Shown piece by piece: positions 6,608 to 37,898 of a stretch of DNA of 64,000 nt. The position numbers and the translations under genes are program-made. The stretch comes from a bacterium (GTDB taxonomy: Bacteria > CG2-30-53-67). Positions within the stretch are counted from its first letter, which is position 1. Each line of letters opens with the position of its first letter. The DNA is taken from the NCBI GenBank assembly GCA_919901565.1, contig CAKKPE010000014.1, positions 37,908 through 101,907 of the forward strand, written 5' to 3'. The notes under the pieces were generated by a model. It worked only from the letters and a program-made list of their open reading frames with translations, was not told the origin of the DNA and searched no databases.

Positions 6608-7625
6608 GGGACACCTCCTGAGTTATTAATAATACACTCTTAAGAAAGTGTCCAGAAATACTCTACCACCTCAGGTTTCACTATCGTATCATAGGGGGCT
6701 GGAGCTATCTGCACGGCATGTTGCACCAGGCGATAGAACAGCTTACCCCTTGATGCGGACTTACGTCGATTAAATCGGAACGTAAATTCATCGAGGTAAT
6801 AGTCCAAATGCTCATGACCGATTGCTCCCTGATGAGTTCCAAGGAGCCACCGCTTCAAAAGGGAAACTACTCGATGGACACGCGGCAGCAAATGCTCGCC
6901 TTCGGGCTGACGACGTTGGACATGGCGGGCGTGAACGTAACCTTCCATGCCGAGATAGGCATTCAGTCCATCGGTTTTAACCGTACTGCCGGGCTCTATG
7001 GCTTGCTTAATAAACCCATGCAAACTTGCTTTGGTCACATCAGGAATGCGACGAAGCCGAATGCGCCCGATGCCTTTGCCGTCCTCTTCGGCAGCCACAA
7101 TAATCAGAGCTTTTTCCTCGGTCAAGCGGCCAACGACGCCTTCTTCATCGCCGCCCCAGTACGTTTCGTCTACCTCGACCGTTCCTTTCAGTCGATCTCG
7201 GCCAGGACGAACCATGGCCCGTCTCAGTTTGTGCAACAGCGCCCAAGCAGTTTCATAGCTGCCAAGCCCAAGTACCCGTTGCAATCCTTGAGCACTCATC
7301 CCGTTCTTCTGGCTTGTAATGTACCACATGGCACGGAACCACACGGTCAGCGGCAGGTGACTGTCTTGGAAAATCGTGCCTGCTGTGACCGATACCTGAT
7401 ATTTGCAATCCCCACACTTCCACAAACCACGTTTCATCGGCCAAGACGTTTTACCGCTACAACGAGGGCAGATAAAGCCATCGGGCCAGCGAAGAATAAA
7501 CAAGTATTGTCTGCACGCCTGTTCACTGGAAAATCGCCTCTCCAGTTCCGGAAGAGTATGAGGATAGTCTTCACTCATGCCTCACATACTACCGATAGTA
7601 GTAGGTTGAGTCAAGTGGATATCCC
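6608..7625 (-). mobile_element. IS1595-family insertion sequence (the 6608 boundary is uncertain)
   Basis: Single transposase ORF. The end at 7604-7625 (ggttgagtcaagtggatatccc) matches the MITE TIR at 30274-30297 at 19 of 22 positions. The other end (gggacacctcctgag at 6608) is only weakly similar. No flanking 8 bp duplication is seen. Confidence 0.65.
6640..7578 (-). CDS. IS1595 family (ISXO2-like) transposase
   Basis: N-terminal zinc ribbon CPRCSG...CGDCKYQVSVTAGTIF. DDE-type region with VEVDETYWGG and TDGLNAY. Confidence 0.9.
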   Translation of the reverse strand: MSEDYPHTLPELERRFSSEQACRQYLFILRWPDGFICPRCSGKTSWPMKRGLWKCGDCKYQVSVTAGTIFQDSHLPLTVWFRAMWYITSQKNGMSAQGLQRVLGLGSYETAWALLHKLRRAMVRPGRDRLKGTVEVDETYWGGDEEGVVGRLTEEKALIIVAAEEDGKGIGRIRLRRIPDVTKASLHGFIKQAIEPGSTVKTDGLNAYLGMEGYVHARHVQRRQPEGEHLLPRVHRVVSLLKRWLLGTHQGAIGHEHLDYYLDEFTFRFNRRKSASRGKLFYRLVQHAVQIAPAPYDTIVKPEVVEYFWTLS

Positions 7626-28278: not shown

Positions 28279-28983
28279 TTACCCGCCAGTCATCAGCCCC
28301 TGGTCCACGAAGCTGAGGTACCTTCCGTCTCCGATCACCAGGTGGTCCAGTACCTTGATCCCGATGAGTTCCCCGGCCTGGATAAGACGCCTGTTCATTT
28401 CGATATCCTCCCGGCTCGGCGTGGGGTCACCGCTCGGATGATTGTGGATCAGGAGGACCGCTGCCGAGGATTCCCGAATCGCCGGTGCAAAGACCTCCCT
28501 GGGATGCACGAGACAGGCGGTGAGGCTCCCCTCCGATACAGTCACGGTGCGGATCACCCTGTTCTTCCCGTTCAACAAAACCACCCGGAAAACCTCTTTC
28601 TTCAGGTCTCTCAGATAGGGTTGGCATGACTCAAAAACATCACGGCTTCCCCGGATCAGATCGCCCTCTTTCAGGGGAAAGGCCTGTACCCGCCTGCCCA
28701 GTTCCAGGGCCGCAAGGACCCGCGCGGCCTTGGCCTTGCCGATTCCCGGGACACAGCAGATATCCGGGATCCCTGCCGTGCTCATTTCCCTGATGTCACG
28801 GTAGCGGCTTAGAAGATCCATGGCCACACTCACAGCACTTCTGCCGGCATTTCCGGTACCAAGAAGGATGGCTATGAGCTGGGCATCGGACAGGGTCCCC
28901 GGTCCGTATTGATGAAGTCTTTCCCTTGGTCGCTCCTCCTCCGGCCAATGCTTGATAGGAAGGTTCATTTTAAGATCAGCCAT
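28279..28983 (-). CDS. radC: RadC-family JAB-domain protein
   Basis: EERPRERL N-terminus, HhH region, and HNHPSGDPTPS JAMM motif. Confidence 0.9.
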   Translation of the reverse strand: MADLKMNLPIKHWPEEERPRERLHQYGPGTLSDAQLIAILLGTGNAGRSAVSVAMDLLSRYRDIREMSTAGIPDICCVPGIGKAKAARVLAALELGRRVQAFPLKEGDLIRGSRDVFESCQPYLRDLKKEVFRVVLLNGKNRVIRTVTVSEGSLTACLVHPREVFAPAIRESSAAVLLIHNHPSGDPTPSREDIEMNRRLIQAGELIGIKVLDHLVIGDGRYLSFVDQGLMTGG

Positions 28984-29252
28984 CTCTTTTTCTCCTTTAA
29001 CTTTTTCATATGGGGTTTTGTCAGGCAGAAAAATCGGCTTATTTCGATCTATTGGATTATATAACCTTTAAAAAAAACTTCAAGTCTTTTTGATAACTTA
29101 TTAAATATTCGGAGATTTCATAGCCAGTTTTAAAATTAAAGGGTCACGGTTATTTTTTTCTTGATCTGAATATTAGTATAATATAATATCCAGTAAAATT
29201 GTCTTCAAGTACAGTTTCTTCTTCACTAAATAAACTCCTGAGGGGGAGTAAA

Positions 29253-30245
29253 ATGAAAACTTCAAAGCAAAAAATTTCTTTAAAGGGACGTTTGATTATT
29301 GTCTTTCTGATCCTGGTCATCTTTGTCGGGGGCGGGACCGTGGCCTACCATGTTCACGATTTCACGGAAAACAACCCCAAATTCTGTGTCAGCTGCCACC
29401 TGATGCAGTCGGCCTACGATGCCTGGGAGAAGAGCGCCCACAGCAATGTCACCTGCCATGAGTGCCACTATGCCACACCCAGCGAACAAAACCGTATGCT
29501 CCTGATGACCATCCTCAAGAAACCCACGGCCGTAGAGGAAAGACACGGCAAGGTCATTGTCCCATGGAAATTCTGTTTCAAGTGCCACTGGGAAACGGAA
29601 AAAGGATTTGAAGCCGCTCCGAATATTGCAAAATCCGCCGGGCATGCAAAACATGTATTCATTGAACAGATTGAGTGCTCCAAGTGCCACGGATATATCA
29701 AAGAAAACAAAACCGGCCTCCATGAGTTCCTTCCCAGCGACCGGTTCTGCCTGAAATGCCATGAAGGCAAGGAGGTCCATGGCCTCGGGATGGAGGGGCT
29801 GGCTTGTCTGGCTTGCCATACGGACAAGACCACGGATATCCGGCCGAACCGTGAAAAATGTCTGACCTGTCACGGTGATGCAGAAACCCGCTCAAAGATC
29901 GCCCTGGCCCCAAAAACCGTGGATACCAGACACTTCATCCCTGACCCGGCCATGGTGCAAAAGGCCTCTACCAATGGGATAAAATTCCCTGAAGGGGCCC
30001 CCATGTCTTTTGAATGCTATACCTGTCATAAACCGCACGCCGAGGTAAAGCCTGCACAGTCAGAGTGCTTCAAGTGCCACCGTGAGATCCAGAAAGTCGG
30101 CAAACACGACCTCCATATCAATATGGTCGGCATGGAATGCATCGCCTGTCACAAGCCGCATGAGTGGAAGGTCAGCAAGGCTGCTGCAAAGACCGCTTGC
30201 AAAGCATGCCATGAATACAGGGATCCGGAGTCATTTCTCCGTTAG
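29253..30245 (+). CDS. Membrane-anchored multihaem cytochrome c with a NapC/NirT-like N-terminal module (11 CxxCH)
   Basis: ATG at 29253 follows agggggag. There is one TM helix, then FCVSCHLMQSAYDAWEKSAH. Eleven CxxCH motifs were counted. Confidence 0.9.
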   Translation: MKTSKQKISLKGRLIIVFLILVIFVGGGTVAYHVHDFTENNPKFCVSCHLMQSAYDAWEKSAHSNVTCHECHYATPSEQNRMLLMTILKKPTAVEERHGKVIVPWKFCFKCHWETEKGFEAAPNIAKSAGHAKHVFIEQIECSKCHGYIKENKTGLHEFLPSDRFCLKCHEGKEVHGLGMEGLACLACHTDKTTDIRPNREKCLTCHGDAETRSKIALAPKTVDTRHFIPDPAMVQKASTNGIKFPEGAPMSFECYTCHKPHAEVKPAQSECFKCHREIQKVGKHDLHINMVGMECIACHKPHEWKVSKAAAKTACKACHEYRDPESFLR

Positions 30246-30273
30246 GACCATTCACAAACAAATCAATAAAAAA

Positions 30274-30480
30274 TAGGGGTATCTACTTGACTCCACCGAC
30301 CCCAATATCTTGAAACCATATCCCCGATAGAAACACTCGGGGATGACAAATAACTGCTTGATAAAATGTCATTCCCGAAGGTTTATAAGCCTGCCCCGGT
30401 ATGTTTTTAAGCCGGGGGGAATCTGGTGCTGCAGAGAGACACCACATATTGTGCCTGGTGGAGTCAAGTAGATACCCCTA
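30274..30480. mobile_element. 207 bp MITE related to the IS1595-family element
   Basis: Perfect 24 bp TIRs (taggggtatctacttgactccacc / ggtggagtcaagtagataccccta). They are flanked by the 8 bp direct repeat ataaaaaa (30266-30273 and 30481-30488). There is no ORF. Confidence 0.85.
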
Positions 30481-30488
30481 ATAAAAAA

Positions 30489-30526
30489 AGAGGCCCGGAT
30501 GTTCAATTCCGGGTCTCTTTTTTTTT
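30489..30526. terminator. Bidirectional intrinsic terminator
   Basis: agaggcccgga / tccgggtctct 11 bp stem (one G-U pair), preceded by an A-run and followed by a T-run. Confidence 0.7.
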
Positions 30527-30588
30527 ATTACGATCAATCGAATGAAGAACCAATACTTCTAACGGGGTCAGAAGGTGTGTAAAAAAGT

Positions 30589-30816
30589 TTAGCGGATTTC
30601 TATCATCATGACAACGTAACCCACCATGGTCACACCGCACAAACAGAGTTTTAACATGATATTCAAGAGTTTTCCCTGCCTGATCTCGATCGTCTCCTGA
30701 CTGAATACCATGTCATCGGACAGTATACTGAGCAGGGCAACAGTCATGATCAATATAATCGAGACCATCAACAAGGAATATATGACTATTTTAATAACCG
30801 ATACCAACTCATGCAT
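30589..30816 (-). CDS. Possible small membrane protein
   Basis: AT-rich ORF with two hydrophobic helices. There is no homology impression and it could be non-coding. Confidence 0.3.
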   Translation of the reverse strand: MHELVSVIKIVIYSLLMVSIILIMTVALLSILSDDMVFSQETIEIRQGKLLNIMLKLCLCGVTMVGYVVMMIEIR

Positions 30817-30927
30817 GAATTCACCCCCCACTTAAAATCAGGTTTTTAATTTACTGGAACTTTTTATATCAAATAACCTTACCCGTGTCAAAACATTTTT
30901 AAAATCACTCTTCTTTTAAAAAATATA

Positions 30928-30955
30928 TTGACATGAGGGTAAAACATGCTATTAT
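30928..30955 (+). promoter_or_regulatory. Putative sigma-70 promoter of the oxidoreductase operon
   Basis: ttgaca-N16-tattat, about 185 nt upstream of the ATG at 31142. Confidence 0.45.
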
Positions 30956-30972
30956 GCGAATATTTTTAAATG

Positions 30973-31000
30973 TGTGATTTTCCGGGGGGTAAAAATCACA
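30973..31000. promoter_or_regulatory. Inverted repeat tgtgatttt-N10-aaaatcaca (possible operator)
   Basis: Perfect 9 bp arms just downstream of the putative -10. The half-sites match the palindrome at 5061-5080. Confidence 0.4.
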
Positions 31001-31141
31001 GATTCATCGTAACAATGATTCACCATTGCTTTGACACTATAGCATTGCAACAGCCGTTTTAAATCCCTCTCAAATAAATTAGTTAATCTTACAAAGAACC
31101 CTAAGGAACAAAAGGGCCGTTTTATCTCAAAGGAGGAAATC

Positions 31142-31798
31142 ATGCCCGAAAAATCCTCTCCCATTGCCCCGGCAGATGATGAGAAACGGAAGACCCGTTA
31201 TGCGATGGTCATCGACCTCAGGCACTGCGTCGGCTGCCACAGTTGTTCTGTCGCCTGCAAGAGCGAGAACGAGGTCCCGCTGGGAAAGTTCCGATCCTGG
31301 GTCAAGGTCATTGAAAAAGGCCGGTATCCGGATGTGAGCCGCCAATTCCTTCCCTCCCTCTGTAACAACTGTGCCAATCCCATCTGTAACCGCAACTGCC
31401 CGGTCCGTGCAACCTACATACGCCCGGACGGCATTGTCGGAGTAAACCAGCACCGATGCATCGGATGCATGTATTGCATGGCCTCCTGTCCTTACGATGT
31501 GAGGTACATCAATCCCTTGAGAAAGATTGTACAGAAATGTTTCTTCTGTGACCACCGCGTGGACAAGGGCCTGGAACCCGCCTGCGTGGAGACCTGTCTG
31601 GGAAAGGCCCGGATCTTCGGAGACATCAATGATCCCAACAGCGAGATTGCCCAGGTTATGTCGACCAATCCCGTGGTCACGCTGAAACCCGACCTGGGGA
31701 CTGAACCGCATGTCTTCTATATCGCGGCAGATTATGACGCCATGGACCCGACAAGCGGGGTAGACATCAACTTCATTCTTTTTGAAGAACCTTATTGA
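31142..31798 (+). CDS. 4Fe-4S ferredoxin-type subunit of a molybdopterin oxidoreductase (PsrB/PhsB/TtrB/NrfC-like)
   Basis: Four Cys clusters: CVGCHSCSVAC, CNNCANPICNRNCP, CIGCMYCMASCP, CFFCDHR...CVETC. Confidence 0.9.
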   Translation: MPEKSSPIAPADDEKRKTRYAMVIDLRHCVGCHSCSVACKSENEVPLGKFRSWVKVIEKGRYPDVSRQFLPSLCNNCANPICNRNCPVRATYIRPDGIVGVNQHRCIGCMYCMASCPYDVRYINPLRKIVQKCFFCDHRVDKGLEPACVETCLGKARIFGDINDPNSEIAQVMSTNPVVTLKPDLGTEPHVFYIAADYDAMDPTSGVDINFILFEEPY

Positions 31799-31825
31799 TC
31801 AAAATAAGAGACGGAGGAATAACCC

Positions 31826-32761
31826 ATGGATCCCAGCAATGTCAACCTGCTATATAATTCCCCCCATCAGATCCCACTGGGGATCCTTCTTGCCCAGTAC
31901 TTCTATCTCACGGGGCTCAGTGCCGGGTCCTTCGTGGTATCGGTCATCGCTATTCTGGGAGGAAAAACCGAATATAAACCCCTCGGGAAGATCGGTGCCG
32001 TGGTCGCTCCGCTCTGCCTGATCCTCGCTCCCATGAATCTTCTGGTTGAAATGGCACAGCCGCTGCGCGCCTGGCACCTGATGACCTATCTGCCCGGCTA
32101 TATCAACCCGAAATCTCCTATCACATACGGGGTCATGCTCCTTACGGCCTATCCCATATCAGCAATCATTTACGCCTTTTTCGTCTATACCGGGAACATG
32201 AAGATGTCCAAGGTTTTCGCCATCATCGGCATTCCGCTTGCCATCTCGGTTCACGGTTATACGGGTTTCATTATCGCCCTGGGCAAAGGGCGTGCGCTTT
32301 GGAATACCGCCCTGATGCCGACACTCTTTATCGTCTCGGCCATGGTCTCTGGTATCGCCCTGATGATTCTGGCGGCCATCATCAGAAATGTCTATTTTTC
32401 ACAGGGGAAAACAGAGGAAGAGATAGAAGCGGACCGCAAACTGATCTATGGACTGGGAAAGTTTCTCGGCGCGGTCATCATCTTTGATCTCTTCCTGATC
32501 CTTAATGCCGTGCTGGTCCTTCTGACCTCGTCCAAAGGGGCATGGCATGCAGCCGAACTTCTGTTATGGGGAAGGTATTCTCTGGATTTCCTGGGTGTCG
32601 AGATTCTGCTTGGAAGCGTGATTCCGCTCTTCATGGTTTTCTATCCGAAAACGGCAACCAGCCTCAAGGGCCTGACGATTGCTTCGATCCTGGTCATGGT
32701 AGGAATCTATGCCATGCGTTATTCCGTGGTCATCGGTGGACAAAGCGTACCACTCCATTGA
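31826..32761 (+). CDS. NrfD/PsrC-family polytopic membrane quinone-interacting subunit
   Basis: About 8 TM helices. Its position between the FeS and catalytic subunits fits the family. Confidence 0.85.
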   Translation: MDPSNVNLLYNSPHQIPLGILLAQYFYLTGLSAGSFVVSVIAILGGKTEYKPLGKIGAVVAPLCLILAPMNLLVEMAQPLRAWHLMTYLPGYINPKSPITYGVMLLTAYPISAIIYAFFVYTGNMKMSKVFAIIGIPLAISVHGYTGFIIALGKGRALWNTALMPTLFIVSAMVSGIALMILAAIIRNVYFSQGKTEEEIEADRKLIYGLGKFLGAVIIFDLFLILNAVLVLLTSSKGAWHAAELLLWGRYSLDFLGVEILLGSVIPLFMVFYPKTATSLKGLTIASILVMVGIYAMRYSVVIGGQSVPLH

Positions 32762-32808
32762 TCTTGGTGGCGAATCTGTCCCCGGCTTGCCCGGGTTAGG
32801 AGGAAGAA

Positions 32809-35163
32809 ATGAAATTCAGCAGACGAACATTTCTGCAGCTCGGTGCCGCCGGTGCCGCATCCCTTGGCCTGGACAAGATCCTTCAAACCCAATCCGATGC
32901 CATGGAACTGATCATGGGAGGGGCTGAGGTTTCAAGGACCACAGGAAAACACCTGAAGCCTATCCCGAGCACCTGCCTGAACTGCTACGCACGCTGCGGA
33001 AATTACGGTTTCAATGCCTACGGGACATTGATCAAGATCGGGCCCAATCCTGAACACCCCAACAGCCGCGGGCGGATGTGCGCCAAAGGGCAGGCAGGAC
33101 TCAATCTGGTCTATGATCCGGACAGAATCCTCTATCCCATGAAACGCGTCGGTCCGAGGGGAGAAGGAAAATGGCAGAGGATCACATGGGAAGAGGCATA
33201 CCATGAAGTCGCCGACCGTATGAAAGCGGTCATGGCTTCAGGACGTCACGAAGAATTCGTATTCCAGAGCGACCGGGACATCACGACCCAGGACTTCACC
33301 CGCCGCTTTGTCCATGCCTTCGGTTCACCCAACGCCTTTGTGAACCATCCTTTAGGGGGCCCCAACAAACAGCTGGCCCAGCAACTGACCTGGGGTGCCG
33401 ATTTTGAGATACCGGATGTCGCCAACTCCGAATACATGCTGATTTTCGGTTCCAATCCCTTTGAGGCCCATTACCTGAGGACCAGCTTTGTACAGAGAAT
33501 GGTGGAAGCACGCTCCATCCGCCGTTTCAGCGCCGACCTTCTCCGACCCAAAGCCAAAATGGTCACTTTTGACGTGCGTGTCTCCCAGACCTCCGGCAGG
33601 AGCGACGAGTGGCACCCGATCATTCCCGGAACCGACGGCCTGGTGGCTCTGGCCATGTGTCACGTCATCATGGAAGAAGGGATGGAGGACAGCTCATTTA
33701 TCAACACGTGGACCAACTATTCTCCGGATGCGCTCAAGCAGCACCTGAAGGATTACACTCCCGAGCTTGCCGAAAAAATCAGCGGCGTACCGGCGAGGGA
33801 AATCCGCCGGATCGCAAAGGAATTCGCTTCAGCAAAACCGTCAACCACGATCTCCACGGGGGGTGTGACCAAACACTGGAACGGCGTCTACTCCGAGAGG
33901 TGTGTGGCCCTTCTGAATATCATCACCGGCAACATCGATATCAAGGGAGGATACTGCCTCCCTAAATACTATACCTTCAATGAACCCGGCCCGGTTCCAC
34001 CCGTACCAAGAATGAAAAGCAGGCTGAATGGATTATCCAACTATCCGCTTGCCATGACGGAACTGCATCACAATGTTCTTCCGATGATCAAAGAAGGACG
34101 GCAACGCATAAAAATCTACATGACCTATCAGCACAATCCCGTCTACTCCAATCCTGAAGGAAAGATGATGGAACTGATCCTCAAAGACGAGGACCTGATC
34201 CCGTACTATGTCTGCATCGATTCTTTCATGACCGAGTCGGCGGCCCTTGCAGACCTGGTCCTGCCCGCAGCGACTTACATAGAACGGATGGAGGTTGAGG
34301 CGCCTCCGGCCTTTGAAATGGTCCCGTTCGTCTCGCTCCGGCAGCCCATGATCCCCCCTCTCGGAGAATCCGTACCCATCACCGACATACTGATCGAGAT
34401 GGCGCGCCGTCTCGGCGGAGGCATGGAGAAATACTTCAAATTCGATACAGAAGGATACATCCGTGAGAGGATCTCCGGAATCAAACCTCTCATGGATGCC
34501 GGAGGGCTGGAATACCTGAAGAAGAACGCGGTGTTCTATGATAAAACCGTGGAACCCCAGTATGAAATCTTCAGGGAAAAAGGGTTCAATACGCCGTCCG
34601 GCAAGATCGAGATCTATTCCAGGAGGATGGAGGAACAGGGGTTCAACCCCCTTCCCAGCTATGATCCCATCCCGGTTCACCAGACCATCAAGGACAGTGA
34701 ACTCTATATGGTCATCCATCAATGGATGGTGCATACTCATGACCGGACAGCCAACTGCATGTGGCTTTCTGAAATCGTCCATGACAATCCCGTTTATATC
34801 AATTCCATGACAGCGAAAAAATTTGATCTGAAGAACTATGACCGGGTGAAAGTAATCTCCAAGGCCGGAGAGATGGAGACCAGTGTCCGCGTGGTTGAGG
34901 GAATCCATCCAAAAGTCATTGCCATTGGAGACAGCTGCGGCCATTGGGGGTTCGGACGCATTGCACAGGCGGAGGCCTTCAAAAGTCAGGACCCGAACAC
35001 CCACCTCCTCTGGTGGGGCAAGGAAAAAGAAGGATGGTGGGCCGAGGAAGAGAGGGACAGAGGAAGCGGCGTCCACCCCAAACCCATCATCCCGATATTA
35101 AGCGATCCGCTTGGCGGAGGCCAGTGCTGGATGGATACGAAGGTGCGTATCGTTAAGGTTTGA
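32809..35163 (+). CDS. Tat-exported molybdopterin (Mo/W-bisPGD) oxidoreductase catalytic subunit, PsrA/PhsA-like size
   Basis: Twin-arginine signal SRRTFLQLGAAGAA. FS0 motif CLNCYARC...RMCAKG. FGSPN and FGSNP motifs. Confidence 0.9.
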   Translation: MKFSRRTFLQLGAAGAASLGLDKILQTQSDAMELIMGGAEVSRTTGKHLKPIPSTCLNCYARCGNYGFNAYGTLIKIGPNPEHPNSRGRMCAKGQAGLNLVYDPDRILYPMKRVGPRGEGKWQRITWEEAYHEVADRMKAVMASGRHEEFVFQSDRDITTQDFTRRFVHAFGSPNAFVNHPLGGPNKQLAQQLTWGADFEIPDVANSEYMLIFGSNPFEAHYLRTSFVQRMVEARSIRRFSADLLRPKAKMVTFDVRVSQTSGRSDEWHPIIPGTDGLVALAMCHVIMEEGMEDSSFINTWTNYSPDALKQHLKDYTPELAEKISGVPAREIRRIAKEFASAKPSTTISTGGVTKHWNGVYSERCVALLNIITGNIDIKGGYCLPKYYTFNEPGPVPPVPRMKSRLNGLSNYPLAMTELHHNVLPMIKEGRQRIKIYMTYQHNPVYSNPEGKMMELILKDEDLIPYYVCIDSFMTESAALADLVLPAATYIERMEVEAPPAFEMVPFVSLRQPMIPPLGESVPITDILIEMARRLGGGMEKYFKFDTEGYIRERISGIKPLMDAGGLEYLKKNAVFYDKTVEPQYEIFREKGFNTPSGKIEIYSRRMEEQGFNPLPSYDPIPVHQTIKDSELYMVIHQWMVHTHDRTANCMWLSEIVHDNPVYINSMTAKKFDLKNYDRVKVISKAGEMETSVRVVEGIHPKVIAIGDSCGHWGFGRIAQAEAFKSQDPNTHLLWWGKEKEGWWAEEERDRGSGVHPKPIIPILSDPLGGGQCWMDTKVRIVKV

Positions 35164-35166
35164 TAT

Positions 35167-35850
35167 ATGAATCCAAAAAGACTTTTAGACAATGAGGCGG
35201 CTCAGCGGAGCGCTGTTTATGCAATCCTCTCACGTGCCTTTCTGAAGGAGCCTGACCTCGAGCTGATCCGTTTCCTGAAAAGCGGCAGGATCCGGGAAAT
35301 TCTTGAGAGCCTGGATCTTTCATTGGGAGATGATTTTCCGGAAAAAGACGAAGCCTCTCTGATAGAGGAGCTTTCTCTTGAATACGCCCGTCTCTTCCTG
35401 ACCCCCCCCTCGCACCTCCCTCCCTGCGAATCCTTTTATGTAGGGGGACTTCAGGATGACATGGAAAATTTTGAGCCTTTTCTCCAGGGAAAGGCTGCCG
35501 ATGAAGTCCGGACATTCTACCGTGAACACGGGATTCTCATGCCCGAAGAGACAGGCGTTTTTCCCGACCATATCGGAGTCGAACTTGAAGCCTTACGGCT
35601 GCTCTGTGAGCTTGAATCCATGGCCATAGACTCCGGCCGCCCTGACCGTGTCCGTCAACTCCGACGAATCACAGGCAATTTTCTCAACGAACATCCGAAG
35701 CGGTGGATGCTCCTCTTCTCAGAGTTGATCCTCAAGAAGGCGGAAAAACCTTTTTATCGAGTCATTGCACAGTTGACCCGTGCCTTTATTGACTCCGAAC
35801 TGGCAGAACTCTCGCACTGCAGAGTTGAAGAGGAGGAAGTCATTTTATGA
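35167..35850 (+). CDS. TorD/DmsD-family redox enzyme maturation chaperone
   Basis: AVYAILSRAFL...EYARLFL pattern. It lies immediately after the catalytic subunit. Confidence 0.75.
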   Translation: MNPKRLLDNEAAQRSAVYAILSRAFLKEPDLELIRFLKSGRIREILESLDLSLGDDFPEKDEASLIEELSLEYARLFLTPPSHLPPCESFYVGGLQDDMENFEPFLQGKAADEVRTFYREHGILMPEETGVFPDHIGVELEALRLLCELESMAIDSGRPDRVRQLRRITGNFLNEHPKRWMLLFSELILKKAEKPFYRVIAQLTRAFIDSELAELSHCRVEEEEVIL

Positions 35851-37067
35851 ATATCAAAAAGTTCTCACCCTGGAAAGTCATTATCGTCATGCTCATTCTG
35901 CTGAGCATCCCTACGCTCTTTGTCTTTCTGCTGGAACGTTACACCACATCAGATGAGAATTTCTGCATGACCTGCCATTATAAAATGTGGGGAGAGGCCT
36001 TTCTGGTGCACTCGAACATACACCCCGATACGGTCCGGTGTCCGCAGTGTCACGCCAACGCCAAGGATTTCATCCCCAAGGACTTTTCGGCCCATCCGGA
36101 ACGGATCAACCCCAACTGCGTCCGCTGCCACCCTGAGATGTTCAAAAAGAAAGACATGGAAGGTTTCAAATATAATGTCATGAATATCTATATGCCCCAC
36201 AAGTTCCATCTTCAGGAGGTAGGCGCCCTTTGCACGGACTGTCACCTCAACATCAAACACGACAAATTGCGTCCCATGACCAACCGTCCGAGAATGGAGA
36301 GCTGTTTTGAATGCCATGACCAGGCAACCACACCCTGCTCCAAATGTCACCAGCGGGGCGCAAGCGAAGTGATCGCCGCATTGCCCAAGACCGATGTCAT
36401 CGAGAGGCCGGAATGCGAAAAATGTCATGCGGATTTCGCATCCAAGCCTATTACTTTCTACCAGGTCGACTTCCCTCATAACCAGCACCTGAAACAGGGG
36501 CTTTCCTGCATGGAATGCCATTCCAATGCCACGAAACACGGTCAGATCGTCAAGTCACGGGCTTTATGCATGCAGTGTCACCACAAGAACATCAAAAAAG
36601 AATGCATCGAATGCCATGCCTTTGAAAATAAATTCCGCAATGGTTCGGCCATGGAGGAAATCAAGGGAGATCCGGACCCTATGGCCGAGATCGTCTCCTG
36701 TGACGTCTGTCATGCGAAGATCAGCGAAGGACATATCAAAAAGGATGTTCTCAGCACCTGCTCCATGTGTCACAAGGATGCGGGATTCGAAAAGAAAGTG
36801 GATGGAATCCAGAAGAAGACGGACGACTCGATCAAGGATCTGGAGAAACTTCTGGCAACCAAAAAGAAAATGATATCCGATCTCCCCGACACCTCCCAAA
36901 AAGAGGTCCAGGCTATGATCGACCAGGGAGAAAAGATCCTGCAGACACTGAAAAAGGATCGAAGCCGGGGTTTCCATAACGCAGCGTACTCGTCTCTTCT
37001 TGTCAAGAATGCCAAAGATATCCTCGAGAAGGCGGCCGCTCCCAAGGGGGAAAAAGGGAAACAATAA
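35847..37067 (+). CDS. Membrane-anchored multihaem cytochrome c with a NapC/NirT-like N-terminal module (12 CxxCH)
   Basis: ATGA overlap with the chaperone gene. There is a TM helix, then FCMTCHYKMWGEAFLVHSNIH. Twelve CxxCH motifs were counted, and the C-terminal tail is charged and coiled-coil-like. Confidence 0.9.
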   Translation: MNIKKFSPWKVIIVMLILLSIPTLFVFLLERYTTSDENFCMTCHYKMWGEAFLVHSNIHPDTVRCPQCHANAKDFIPKDFSAHPERINPNCVRCHPEMFKKKDMEGFKYNVMNIYMPHKFHLQEVGALCTDCHLNIKHDKLRPMTNRPRMESCFECHDQATTPCSKCHQRGASEVIAALPKTDVIERPECEKCHADFASKPITFYQVDFPHNQHLKQGLSCMECHSNATKHGQIVKSRALCMQCHHKNIKKECIECHAFENKFRNGSAMEEIKGDPDPMAEIVSCDVCHAKISEGHIKKDVLSTCSMCHKDAGFEKKVDGIQKKTDDSIKDLEKLLATKKKMISDLPDTSQKEVQAMIDQGEKILQTLKKDRSRGFHNAAYSSLLVKNAKDILEKAAAPKGEKGKQ

Positions 37068-37376
37068 TAAAAGCGATCCGTTCCTGTGGTTTATTATTAC
37101 ATAAGGAATACGCCTTTCCAGAAGCCGGAGGTGATTCCCCCTTGCGCGTATGAATGTCCGGAACATTTTTTTGCAAGAAGTAGAAAAACGCCTCAAAACC
37201 GGCCGATTTTGCCCTCCTTATATTCCTTTAACTTTCAATGGATTACATTCAAATATATCCTGATGTGACATATCGCCCCATCAGGCCATAACCCTATATC
37301 CTCACGCCTTGATCCATCCCGAAAAATATCGCTTTGAAATGAATGGGTTGCACACGAATATCCATCCCCGTAAACA

Positions 37377-37392
37377 TGGCATCATATTTGCT
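37377..37392 (+). promoter_or_regulatory. Sigma-54 (-24/-12) promoter
   Basis: tggcatcatatttgct matches TGGCA-N6-TTGCT (GG-N10-GC spacing). It is about 95 nt upstream of the response regulator ATG. Confidence 0.55.
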
Positions 37393-37484
37393 ATATGATT
37401 AACAGAATCTGATTTATAAGTTCGGCTTAAGGGATTACAAACCCAACCACTGGTAACCATGCTTAATCATGGAAAGGGCTCACC

Positions 37485-37898
37485 ATGACACCTTTAAAAA
37501 GCGGGAACGGCCATGATCGGCATATCCTGGTCATTGACGATGATTATGAGATGTGTCAACTTATCAAGAAGTTTCTGCAGATGGAAAACTATCATGTACA
37601 AACGGCGTTAAGCGGGTACGAGGGCCTTTTTCTGCTCAAGCAGCATTCATTCGACCTGGTCATCAGCGATCTCAAGATGCCGGGAATATCGGGGATTGAA
37701 TTGATCCGGAAGGCCAGGGCCGTCACCCCGGAGACGCCCTTTATTCTGATTACGGCATTCGGTGATGTAAAAACCTATATTGAAGCCATGGATTCAGGCG
37801 TTTTCGAATTTTTGAACAAACCGATCAAGATGCAGGACCTCAAACTCATTATCCATAAAGCGCTTCAAGACCATTGCCGGGAATGCAAAATACAATAG
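37485..37898 (+). CDS. Single-domain CheY-like response regulator
   Basis: VIDDD acidic pocket, phospho-acceptor in LVISDLKMPG, T in ILITAF, K in NKPI. There is no output domain. Confidence 0.9.
   Translation: MTPLKSGNGHDRHILVIDDDYEMCQLIKKFLQMENYHVQTALSGYEGLFLLKQHSFDLVISDLKMPGISGIELIRKARAVTPETPFILITAFGDVKTYIEAMDSGVFEFLNKPIKMQDLKLIIHKALQDHCRECKIQ

Follow-up and report, generated by a model that had tools for sequence, protein, structure and literature searches.

Organisation of the locus

The subject of this study is a gene cluster for a putative quinone-linked molybdoenzyme with multihaem cytochromes, which occupies positions 29253-37067 of a 64-kb stretch of contig CAKKPE010000014.1 (assembly GCA_919901565.1) from an uncultured Nitrospirota bacterium of the GTDB lineage CG2-30-53-67. 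This whole stretch is referred to as the window, and coordinates given without a locus name are positions in it. An earlier sequence-only reading of the window had listed six open reading frames (ORFs) in this region, and all six were found at the positions and in the gene order it gave.

The six genes are situated on the plus strand. The first, cyt1 (29253..30245), encodes a membrane-anchored c-type cytochrome with 11 CxxCH motifs and one N-terminal transmembrane helix, and its ATG lies behind a GGGGGAG Shine-Dalgarno sequence. After an intergenic region, discussed below, follow the gene of the beta subunit (31142..31798), a four-cluster [4Fe-4S] protein with 16 Cys in four ferredoxin-type groups (hereafter the iron-sulfur, or FeS, subunit), and the gene of the gamma subunit (31826..32761), an NrfD/PsrC-type integral membrane protein (PF03916) with eight hydrophobic segments. 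The alpha, or Mo, subunit (32809..35163; 784 aa) carries an SRRTFLQ motif for twin-arginine translocation (Tat) and has the Mo/W-bis(pyranopterin guanine dinucleotide) (bisPGD) fold, represented by PF04879, PF00384 and PF01568. Only 3 nt past its stop codon starts the gene of a TorD/NarJ-family maturation chaperone (35167..35850; PF02613 at 1e-19, 71.3 bits against a cut-off of 22.2). The cluster ends with cyt2 (35847..37067), encoding a membrane-anchored cytochrome of 406 aa with 12 CxxCH motifs and one transmembrane helix; its ATG overlaps the TGA stop codon of the TorD gene (ATGA), to which it is translationally coupled. Helix counts for the window proteins come from hydropathy only. The earlier assignment of a 4x[4Fe-4S] protein, an NrfD protein, a Tat-signal Mo subunit and TorD was confirmed by motifs, Pfam domains and topology.

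The alpha subunit and its missing canonical molybdenum ligand

Both the Mo-bisPGD identity of alpha and its PsrA/PhsA-like size, as proposed from the sequence alone, were borne out. The best family-model match was PhsA, with 359.9 bits against a cut-off of 694 (NF012032), and no subunit of the window locus reached an NCBIfam equivalog cut-off. Compared with PsrA of Thermus thermophilus (2vpw_A), alpha produced a match at 1.3e-67, and at 1.8e-103 with the family profile. The AlphaFold2 model of alpha (pLDDT 83.5, pTM 0.84) had ArrA and PsrA as its top Foldseek matches (TM-score 0.77-0.81), and none of the top 50 structural matches was a chain of alternative complex III (ACIII). The nearest proteins showed 97% and 93% identity, and all 120 relatives among the matches listed were metagenomic, with uninformative names. 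Alpha thus nests in no characterised clade, as no equivalog cut-off was reached and its close relatives are all unnamed proteins of metagenome-assembled genomes (MAGs).

Column statistics were calculated for 78 non-identical family members, of which the crown group described below comprises 72. The motif for the FS0 cluster of alpha is C56/C59/C63/C91; these four Cys are present in 78/78 members, and K93, two residues after the fourth of them, is Lys or Arg in all 78. At the canonical Mo-ligand position, alpha has Gly183-Gly184 and no Cys. In profile alignments, four known or presumed ligands, namely the Mo/W-binding Cys in PsrA, in ArrA and in acetylene hydratase and the selenocysteine in an F420-dependent formate dehydrogenase, fall into one column, where the window protein has Gly183, followed by Gly184; PsrA Cys173 aligns to Gly183 in both pairwise and profile alignment. 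The assignment of the ligand position is alignment-based, with the four independent references and two Cys-bearing relatives in concordance. Over the 78 members this column holds mainly G (29) and Y (13), then E (6), S (5), L (5), C (4), T (4) and F (4); the ligand Cys is therefore found in 4/78 family members and in 0/72 of the crown group. Asn186 is kept in 75/78. Furthermore, a clade-specific Cys383 in the segment GGYCLPK (GGYCLP[R/K]) occurs in 73/78 members, and both PsrA and PhsA have Tyr at this place.

In a neighbour-joining tree rooted on PsrA and PhsA, three small basal groups were followed by the 72-member, Cys-less crown group. One of the basal groups, consisting of Azoarcus sp. 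KH32C and three Bacillota MAGs, has retained the canonical Cys ('CE'). With the crown group lacking it throughout, the canonical Cys was apparently lost once, at the base of this group. Cys383 is older than this loss, being present already in the Cys-bearing Azoarcus protein, L031 and L034. PsrA, PhsA and the Azoarcus protein have the same residue at 116 positions; in the crown group, 84 of these show a conservation of at least 70%, and 56 of at least 90%. The conserved cofactor positions include DxR (255-257), PGTD (273-276) and ADxxLP(...E) (481-486). The crown group thus seems to have lost a single residue, with the rest of the cofactor scaffold left intact. The C-terminal GHWxYGRxA motif is common to ArrA and the alpha family, and the ArrA RGRY segment, which we take to be the (R/K)GRY substrate motif, aligns to non-matching residues in the family. 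It should be added that the missing canonical Mo ligand was not mentioned in the sequence-only reading; it is the sole feature that points towards a drift similar to that of the quinone reductase complex (Qrc).

Iron-sulfur, membrane and chaperone subunits

The beta subunit belongs to PF13247; its best NCBIfam match was TtrB (226.5 bits against a cut-off of 416) and its best PDB match PsrB (2vpw_B, 3.9e-54). Beta has no signal peptide of its own and is taken to be exported as a Tat hitch-hiker with alpha. ActB chains were found among the PDB matches of the beta subunit only. Gamma matched PF03916 at 3.5e-41 over its full length, with eight predicted transmembrane helices and no cofactor motifs; searched by sequence, it had no match in the PDB, and all NCBIfam equivalogs were far below their cut-offs. 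The models for TorD, DmsD and type-II chaperones matched the chaperone weakly, and it combines the PF02613 domain with a gene position beside a Tat-exported Mo enzyme, as expected of the family.

Multihaem cytochromes

In cyt1, PF03264 (NapC/NirT) scored 29.3 bits against a cut-off of 24.1 and covered 6-166 of 174 model positions, and TIGR03153 (NrfH) matched at 1.9e-13 over the whole model, with 50.6 bits against an equivalog cut-off of 134.2. The best PDB match was NrfH of Desulfovibrio vulgaris (2j7a_C), aligned across haems 1-2, where FCVSCHLM of cyt1 corresponds to FCTSCHIM of NrfH (CxxCHxM, the haem-1 signature). The N-terminal ~130 aa of cyt1 represent an NrfH/NapC-type module. Moreover, cyt1-like proteins have the family motif (D/N)PxFCxxCHxM...W..S.H, and CxxCHxM is present in 23/25 of these sequences. 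Because of the NrfH motif, the alignment at haems 1-2 and the Pfam threshold passed, we interpret cyt1 as an NrfH-type quinol dehydrogenase module plus seven haems, NrfH itself having 4 haems.

The second cytochrome is of another kind. PF14522 and PF14537 were identified in cyt2, and PF03264 scored only 19.4 bits, under the cut-off of 24.1, covering 9-75 of 174 positions. Its family motif, YTTxxxxFCLxCH...SxxHP, has no Met at +2 and was found in about 70 loci. Beyond the 12 His of its CxxCH motifs, cyt2 has another 12, a number compatible with all-bis-His haems. PDB matches were weak (cytochrome c7-like 8k9e_A at 3e-4, ActA of ACIII, 6lod_A, at 6e-3, and NrfH), and homologues carry only the names 'hypothetical' or 'multiheme cytochrome'. 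The cyt2-like proteins have from 5 to 21 haems, some with C-terminal class-I cytochrome c domains. A NapC/NirT/NrfH-type start, which had been proposed for both cytochromes, therefore holds for cyt1, with its threshold score and CxxCHxM, and fails for cyt2 (19.4 against 24.1 bits, no Met). With this, the earlier count of up to three potential quinone-coupling modules is weakened as well, as the cyt2 family has its own motif without Met and remains below the NapC/NirT threshold.

A deltaproteobacterial subclade is devoid of the FeS gene (L063, L069-L073 and L078; also L067, where the contig start is too near the cluster to count). Its gene order is an atpE-like gene, NrfD, Mo and a six-haem cyt2-like gene. 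In this subclade, which keeps the NrfD-Mo-cytochrome arrangement, no gene of the cluster other than that of the cytochrome encodes a candidate redox partner for the Mo subunit, and it is mainly for this reason that cyt2 is regarded as a dedicated partner rather than a neighbour.

Distribution and conservation of the cluster

The locus census was a family-profile scan with one genome per GTDB species; genes in the related loci come from mechanical ORF calling, and neighbours were classified with the window's own proteins as queries. The clade was found in 80 species-level genomes, all of them MAGs, labelled with about a dozen phylum-level names. The closest loci (75-78% identity) belong to uncultured Nitrospirota from groundwater. 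Other carriers are labelled as Armatimonadota, Bacillota, Syntrophobacterales and other Thermodesulfobacteriota, Chloroflexota/Dehalococcoidia and Scalindua-type anammox bacteria, and still others as Methylomirabilota, Nitrospinota, Actinomycetes/Thermoleophilia, Cytophagia and candidate phyla.

Across these genomes the conserved order is (NrfH-type cytochrome)-FeS-NrfD-Mo-(TorD)-multihaem cytochrome. NrfD is located upstream of the Mo gene in 75 loci of 80, and the FeS gene is present in 63 of the 70 loci whose sequence extends far enough to include it. A multihaem cytochrome gene follows Mo or TorD on the same strand in 63 of the 68 loci with room, and an NrfH-type cytochrome (at least seven haems) was detected upstream in 18/61. 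These frequencies bear out the earlier suggestion that the cytochromes are tied to the enzyme. Locus L008 has the exact arrangement of the window, glgC-glnD-radC-cyt1-small ORF-FeS-NrfD-Mo-TorD-cyt2. Synteny of cyt1 extends to L008-L010 and L012, and in L009 its end is separated from the FeS gene by 33 bp; L015 has the same flanks and no cyt1. From its position in L008, L009 and related loci, cyt1 is regarded as an ancestral member of the cluster.

The neighbourhoods revealed no gene that would betray a substrate: around the 80 loci no substrate-specific neighbour is conserved, nor any arsenic, sulfur or selenium handling gene, nor any rhodanese or Sud-type gene. Recurrent neighbours are haem-containing HisKA_3 kinases (17 loci) and SPFH, cytochrome b, HemL and radical-SAM genes, none of them substrate-specific. 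The HisKA_3 sensor kinases have a periplasmic CxxCH and are encoded 2-5 kb upstream on the same strand (e.g. L043, 6075-7562). The Mo gene has an SPFH/Band-7 gene as its direct neighbour in about 10 loci, and nine loci have cytochrome b genes in the vicinity.

In Scalindua-type MAGs the cluster is flanked by octahaem or heptahaem proteins of the hydroxylamine oxidoreductase (HAO) family (PF13447, one with Hao_C; L039, 2769-4334 and 12568-14265; L036, 5298-6866), and two more HAO-family proteins are encoded ~4 kb downstream in the Bacillota MAG L034 (16773-19120). The anammox cluster kustd2021 / EX330_11030-11050, which is up-regulated on electrodes, was also considered; it encodes a phosphatase-like protein, a peroxiredoxin, a hemerythrin and an HAO, and is unrelated. 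Extra NrfD/FeS/multihaem modules stand beside the cluster in Nitrospirota of 60% identity (L003/L011/L014, 1557-5350; 3' of cyt2 in L010, L013 and L018). One type consists of an NrfD of 410-478 aa, an FeS protein of 322-412 aa and two pentahaem cytochromes; the other combines a tetrahaem cytochrome with FeS and NrfD proteins of ~308 and ~408 aa, respectively. Together with the cluster, these modules form respiratory gene islands.

The only relative found in a cultured organism is that of Azoarcus sp. KH32C (L086; plasmid pAZKH, NC_020548.1, 52624-72999). Its cluster AZKH_RS23105-23120 encodes FeS, NrfD, Mo (879 aa) and TorD proteins, followed by hypothetical proteins and a NapF-like polyferredoxin. 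Beside it are divergent genes for a Phosphonate-bd binding protein, a histidine kinase and a sigma-54 regulator, with arsA and arsB(ACR3) beyond. An arsenic link through this neighbourhood was considered and set aside as suggestive only: the protein keeps its Cys, there are no cytochromes, and a weak rhodanese-like match (E = 0.006) points equally to sulfur.

Intergenic region and neighbouring features

Between cyt1 and the FeS gene there is an element of 207 bp (30274..30480) resembling a miniature inverted-repeat transposable element (MITE), with 35-nt terminal inverted repeats (inverted repeat I1, 89% complementary). The element with its terminal repeats, recognised in the sequence-only reading as a MITE, is real; it is, however, a single copy in the window, and no further copies were found there or in 85 loci. 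Its terminal repeat agrees in 19/22 bases with 7604-7625, at one end of a transposase gene of the IS1595 type. This ORF (6640-7625, minus strand) encodes 312 aa with a zinc-ribbon N-terminus, and the GC content of the surrounding 4-10 kb is 46-47%, below that of the flanks.

The terminator reported earlier is a bidirectional, intrinsic-terminator-like hairpin with an A-run, a GC stem and a T-run (30483..30524; inverted repeat I2, 17-nt arms, 94% complementary), and a terminator scan gave a match at 30513-30494. It is placed between cyt1 and a convergent small ORF on the minus strand (30589..30831), which the sequence-only reading did not include. The latter encodes a membrane protein of 80 aa with two transmembrane helices and no Pfam family, possibly an accessory subunit of the complex. 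In nine Nitrospirota loci a homologue (24-53% identity, motif L.SI..DD..F) is encoded immediately 5' of the FeS gene. The gene is inverted (minus) in the window and in the two closest loci, L008 (7797-8024) and L015 (7882-8154), and has plus orientation in L010-L014 and L018 (7990-8220 in L010); in the Nitrospirota clade of 60% identity it is co-oriented with the operon. Actinobacterial loci have another conserved ORF at that place, of 44 aa with one transmembrane helix (MWYI..FF..N..AT..IL...FGIPP.INWL).

A sigma-70-like promoter, TTGACA-16-TATTAT with an extended -10 (TG), was found as predicted at 30928..30955 (plus strand), 186 nt 5' of the FeS start codon; with an 11/12 match it is the best of the region. 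Directly 3' of its -10 element is an inverted repeat at 30969-31004, AATGTGTGATTTT / AAAATCACAGATT (TGTGA...TCACA, 10-nt loop), which could be an operator or a leader hairpin. The 186-nt leader folds no better than shuffled sequence, and neither there nor in the rest of 28900-37600 was there a credible Rfam match to a riboswitch, for Mo cofactor or other. A terminator, the divergent small ORF and a promoter separate cyt1 from the FeS gene and make it, as had been suspected, a transcription unit of its own in the window; this separation came about in the window lineage with the inversion of the small ORF.

Downstream of cyt2, a stand-alone response-regulator receiver domain is encoded at 37485..37898 (plus strand; PF00072 at 5e-29). 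The gene has the same downstream position in L007, L015 and L041, a synteny by which it is possibly associated with the operon. Outer-membrane, extracellular or further cytochrome genes were not found in the 64-kb window, so that the earlier suggestion of a link to extracellular electron transfer gains no support from the neighbourhood.

Proposed function and alternative explanations

We favour the interpretation, with a probability of about 0.55, that the cluster encodes a quinone-linked periplasmic molybdoenzyme with a non-canonical first coordination sphere, whose Mo site is linked to menaquinone via NrfD, FeS and FS0 as well as via haem chains. Alpha, with FS0 and the Mo/W-bisPGD fold, and the hitch-hiking beta would constitute the core of a periplasm-facing respiratory complex of the Psr/Arr type, in which the NrfD/PsrC subunit would exchange electrons with menaquinone and TorD would be responsible for cofactor insertion and export of alpha. 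Between the menaquinone pool and the Mo site, one electron route would run from NrfD through the four FeS clusters to FS0, and the other from the haems of cyt1 and cyt2 to FS0; such a pair may be comparable to the supply of Nap by both NapC and NapGH, or of TorA by TorC. Long haem chains would also permit exchange with other periplasmic redox proteins. The metal may be without a canonical protein ligand, as in arsenite oxidase, or may be held by the clade-specific Cys383. Retention of the cofactor is suggested by FS0 (78/78), Lys/Arg93 (78/78), the conserved cofactor motifs, TorD in the operon and the eight-helix NrfD. The more specific proposal, that we are dealing with an active Mo/W-bisPGD family of the Psr/Arr lineage without the canonical Cys, using Cys383 or no protein ligand and built into a molybdoenzyme-multihaem supercomplex, is put forward tentatively.

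A number of points weigh against this interpretation. Cofactor content, substrate and electron direction are conjectural throughout the clade. A missing canonical ligand is described in the literature as a marker of cofactor loss (Nqo3, FhcB, ActB). Cys383 is a candidate ligand only, present already in relatives with the canonical Cys. Retention of FS0 alone is no proof of a cofactor, since an off-pathway cluster is also retained in Nqo3. An adjacent TorD gene occurs in only 17/80 loci, and the tree is a neighbour-joining one from a single MAFFT alignment with two outgroups (PsrA and PhsA).

The main rival, in our view less probable, is a cofactor-less conduit of the Qrc/ACIII kind, in which the Mo-like subunit would act as a scaffold or FeS relay and the complex as a multihaem-cytochrome:menaquinone oxidoreductase. 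With this would agree the absence of the canonical Mo ligand, the said marker of cofactor loss, from all 72 crown-group members, a subunit inventory equal to QrcABCD, and the near-universal cytochrome partner of 5 to 21 haems, which in some relatives has C-terminal class-I cytochrome c domains. The weak similarity of cyt2 to ActA (6lod_A) and the c7-like 8k9e_A, the HAO-family octahaem enzymes flanking the cluster in Scalindua and one Bacillota locus, and the fact that Cys-bearing basal relatives (Azoarcus, L031, L053) are mostly without a cyt2-type partner point in the same direction. However, QrcB and ActB are listed without a Mo cofactor, and QrcB without any cluster, whereas FS0, the Lys/Arg relay and the PGD-binding motifs are strongly conserved here, and all 16 Cys of beta are present, whereas QrcC and ActB have [3Fe-4S]. 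NrfD has 8 helices and not 10, the Qrc models stay far under their cut-offs, and a TorD-type chaperone is encoded in translational coupling. In the FeS-less subclade, moreover, the cluster offers no obvious end point other than the Mo subunit.

Less probable still is a substrate-oxidising enzyme similar to Aio/Arx or Soe, with a ligand-free Mo site that oxidises a reduced inorganic compound and passes the electrons into haem wires and, through FeS/NrfD, to quinone. To our knowledge, among the well-studied active MopB enzymes arsenite oxidase alone has no protein ligand to its Mo. The Azoarcus neighbourhood, with its Phosphonate-bd protein, histidine kinase, sigma-54 regulator, arsA and arsB(ACR3), would be in line with such a function, the binding-protein/kinase/sigma-54 architecture presumably resembling AioXSR; multihaem and class-I cytochromes are also typical acceptors of periplasmic oxidases. 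Nevertheless, the Azoarcus protein keeps the canonical Cys, has no cytochromes and may differ in function. The ArrA and arsenite oxidase models reached 172.7 against 1600 and 19 against 359, respectively, the ArrA RGRY segment is unmatched in the family, NrfH-type cytochromes and PsrC-type subunits usually oxidise quinol, and in the neighbourhoods of the 80 loci an arsenic, sulfur or selenium handling gene is not conserved.

It is very improbable that the enzyme is an ordinary reductase of polysulfide, thiosulfate or tetrathionate beside unrelated cytochrome genes, and a Psr, Phs or Ttr with chance neighbours essentially excluded: PhsA (360 bits) and TtrB (226 bits) are the best family models, PsrA and PsrB the closest solved structures by sequence and the gene order is that of ttrBCA, but all equivalog cut-offs are missed widely, the shared Mo-ligating Cys is absent, the cytochrome genes are positionally conserved across phyla with cyt2 overlapping the TorD stop codon, and no rhodanese or Sud-type gene is conserved nearby.

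Relation to published work and significance

A large share of anaerobic respiration with sulfur, arsenic, selenium and nitrogen compounds depends on complex iron-sulfur molybdoenzymes, whose function is routinely inferred from clade and metal ligand. No published description of the present cluster was found in the full-text literature searched, where ACIII-like, Qrc, 'Moly', Psr-like and Soe-like clusters turned up. A review of NrfD proteins has no such complex among those it describes, and MAG studies describe ACIII-like clusters instead. A large MopB phylogeny contains new lineages without names, said to 'appear to utilize a Cys', and its sequences were checked for the 'correct ligand' of the assigned family, so that a Cys-less clade like this one would probably have been removed. 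A proposal for Pyrodictium, cited in one paper, has membrane multihaem cytochromes and molybdopterin enzymes acting together in Fe(III) reduction; we regard it as a lead and not as evidence in the present case.

Members of the clade are currently annotated as 'molybdopterin-dependent oxidoreductase' or 'thiosulfate/polysulfide reductase chain A', and the latter name is very likely wrong for the clade. The clade is widespread in lineages of groundwater and sediment, among them Nitrospirota, marine anammox bacteria, Methylomirabilota, Chloroflexota, Actinomycetota and Thermodesulfobacteriota. Should the enzyme be active, it would represent a new way of holding Mo/W and a respiratory reaction as yet assigned to no gene; should the Cys-less supercomplex be real, it would add a new solution for the first coordination sphere and a new respiratory module across many anaerobic phyla. 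If, on the other hand, the cofactor is absent, this would be a further independent transition from molybdoenzyme to electron-transfer scaffold, at an earlier stage than Qrc/ACIII, with FS0 and binding motifs intact.

Comparison with known systems

Among characterised systems, PsrABC offers the closest solved relatives, PsrA and PsrB of T. thermophilus, for alpha (27% identity in structural alignment) and beta. Common to both are a Tat-exported alpha with FS0, a four-cluster beta without its own signal peptide, an eight-helix NrfD/PsrC and the periplasm-facing orientation. The Psr order, however, is A-B-C, and that of the window B-C-A; PsrA Cys173 is replaced by Gly, the clade-specific Cys stands at a PsrA Tyr, and the conserved cluster of the window also includes TorD and two multihaem cytochromes. 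The alpha-beta-gamma core would nevertheless function in the manner of Psr. From PhsABC the locus is separated by the missed PhsA cut-off (359.9 against 694) and by the membrane subunit, which is of the NrfD type in the window, whereas Salmonella phsC is annotated as cytochrome b.

With TtrBCA the locus shares the B-C-A order noticed in the sequence-only reading, with FeS, NrfD and Mo genes on the plus strand, and beta has TtrB as its best NCBIfam match. Nonetheless, the scores for TtrA (133.5 against 1750), TtrB (226.5 against 416) and TtrC (48.5 against 314) are far from the cut-offs, alpha has 784 aa in comparison with about 1020 aa for TtrA, and the window has a beta without Tat signal and possesses cytochromes. 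ArrA of ArrAB from Shewanella sp. ANA-3 (6cz7) was the top Foldseek match of the alpha model (TM-score 0.78) and shares the GHWxYGRxA motif, but identity is 22%, the ArrA model scored 172.7 against 1600, and the window family has neither the Cys ligand nor RGRY.

TorCA, DorCA, NapC/NapGH-NapAB and NrfHA resemble the window locus in having a multihaem cytochrome anchored by a transmembrane helix, which in Tor, Dor and Nap is found beside a periplasmic Mo enzyme, and in the CxxCHxM of cyt1. TorC and DorC are a precedent for a membrane-anchored multihaem partner of a Mo enzyme, and Nap for two parallel quinol modules (NapC and NapGH) serving one periplasmic Mo enzyme. The window cytochromes differ in having 11 and 12 haems as compared with 4-5, and they coexist with a full FeS/NrfD module.

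Qrc and ACIII were compared with the window locus by means of published descriptions and NCBIfam scores. All have a membrane multihaem cytochrome with Mo-like, FeS and NrfD subunits, the canonical ligand is missing, and cyt2 is weakly like ActA. In the literature, QrcB and ActB are listed without Mo cofactor, QrcB without any cluster, QrcC and ActB with [3Fe-4S], and their NrfD partner has 10 helices; eight-helix NrfD proteins are associated with true Mo enzymes and ten-helix ones with cofactor-less or non-Mo partners. Scores for QrcB, QrcC and QrcD were 196, 115 and 28.5 against cut-offs of 440, 400 and 570. Unlike ACIII, the window has separate alpha and beta genes with nrfD between them, no ActB fusion and no ActD, ActE or ActF, the cluster being free of additional genes for membrane or monohaem proteins. 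The Qrc/ACIII-like identity suggested earlier was consequently not upheld, as the window locus keeps FS0, the PGD-binding motifs, the 16 Cys of beta, with which a [3Fe-4S] cluster is not to be expected, the eight-helix NrfD and TorD.

The window locus is thus not a member of Psr, Phs, Ttr, Arr, Qrc or ACIII. The Azoarcus cluster is similar to it in 39.7% identity over 96% of alpha, in the FeS-NrfD-Mo-TorD order and in the equivalent of Cys383; it differs in that it keeps the canonical Cys (SVCESSKK), has no cytochromes and is basal to the Cys-less crown group to which the window protein belongs.

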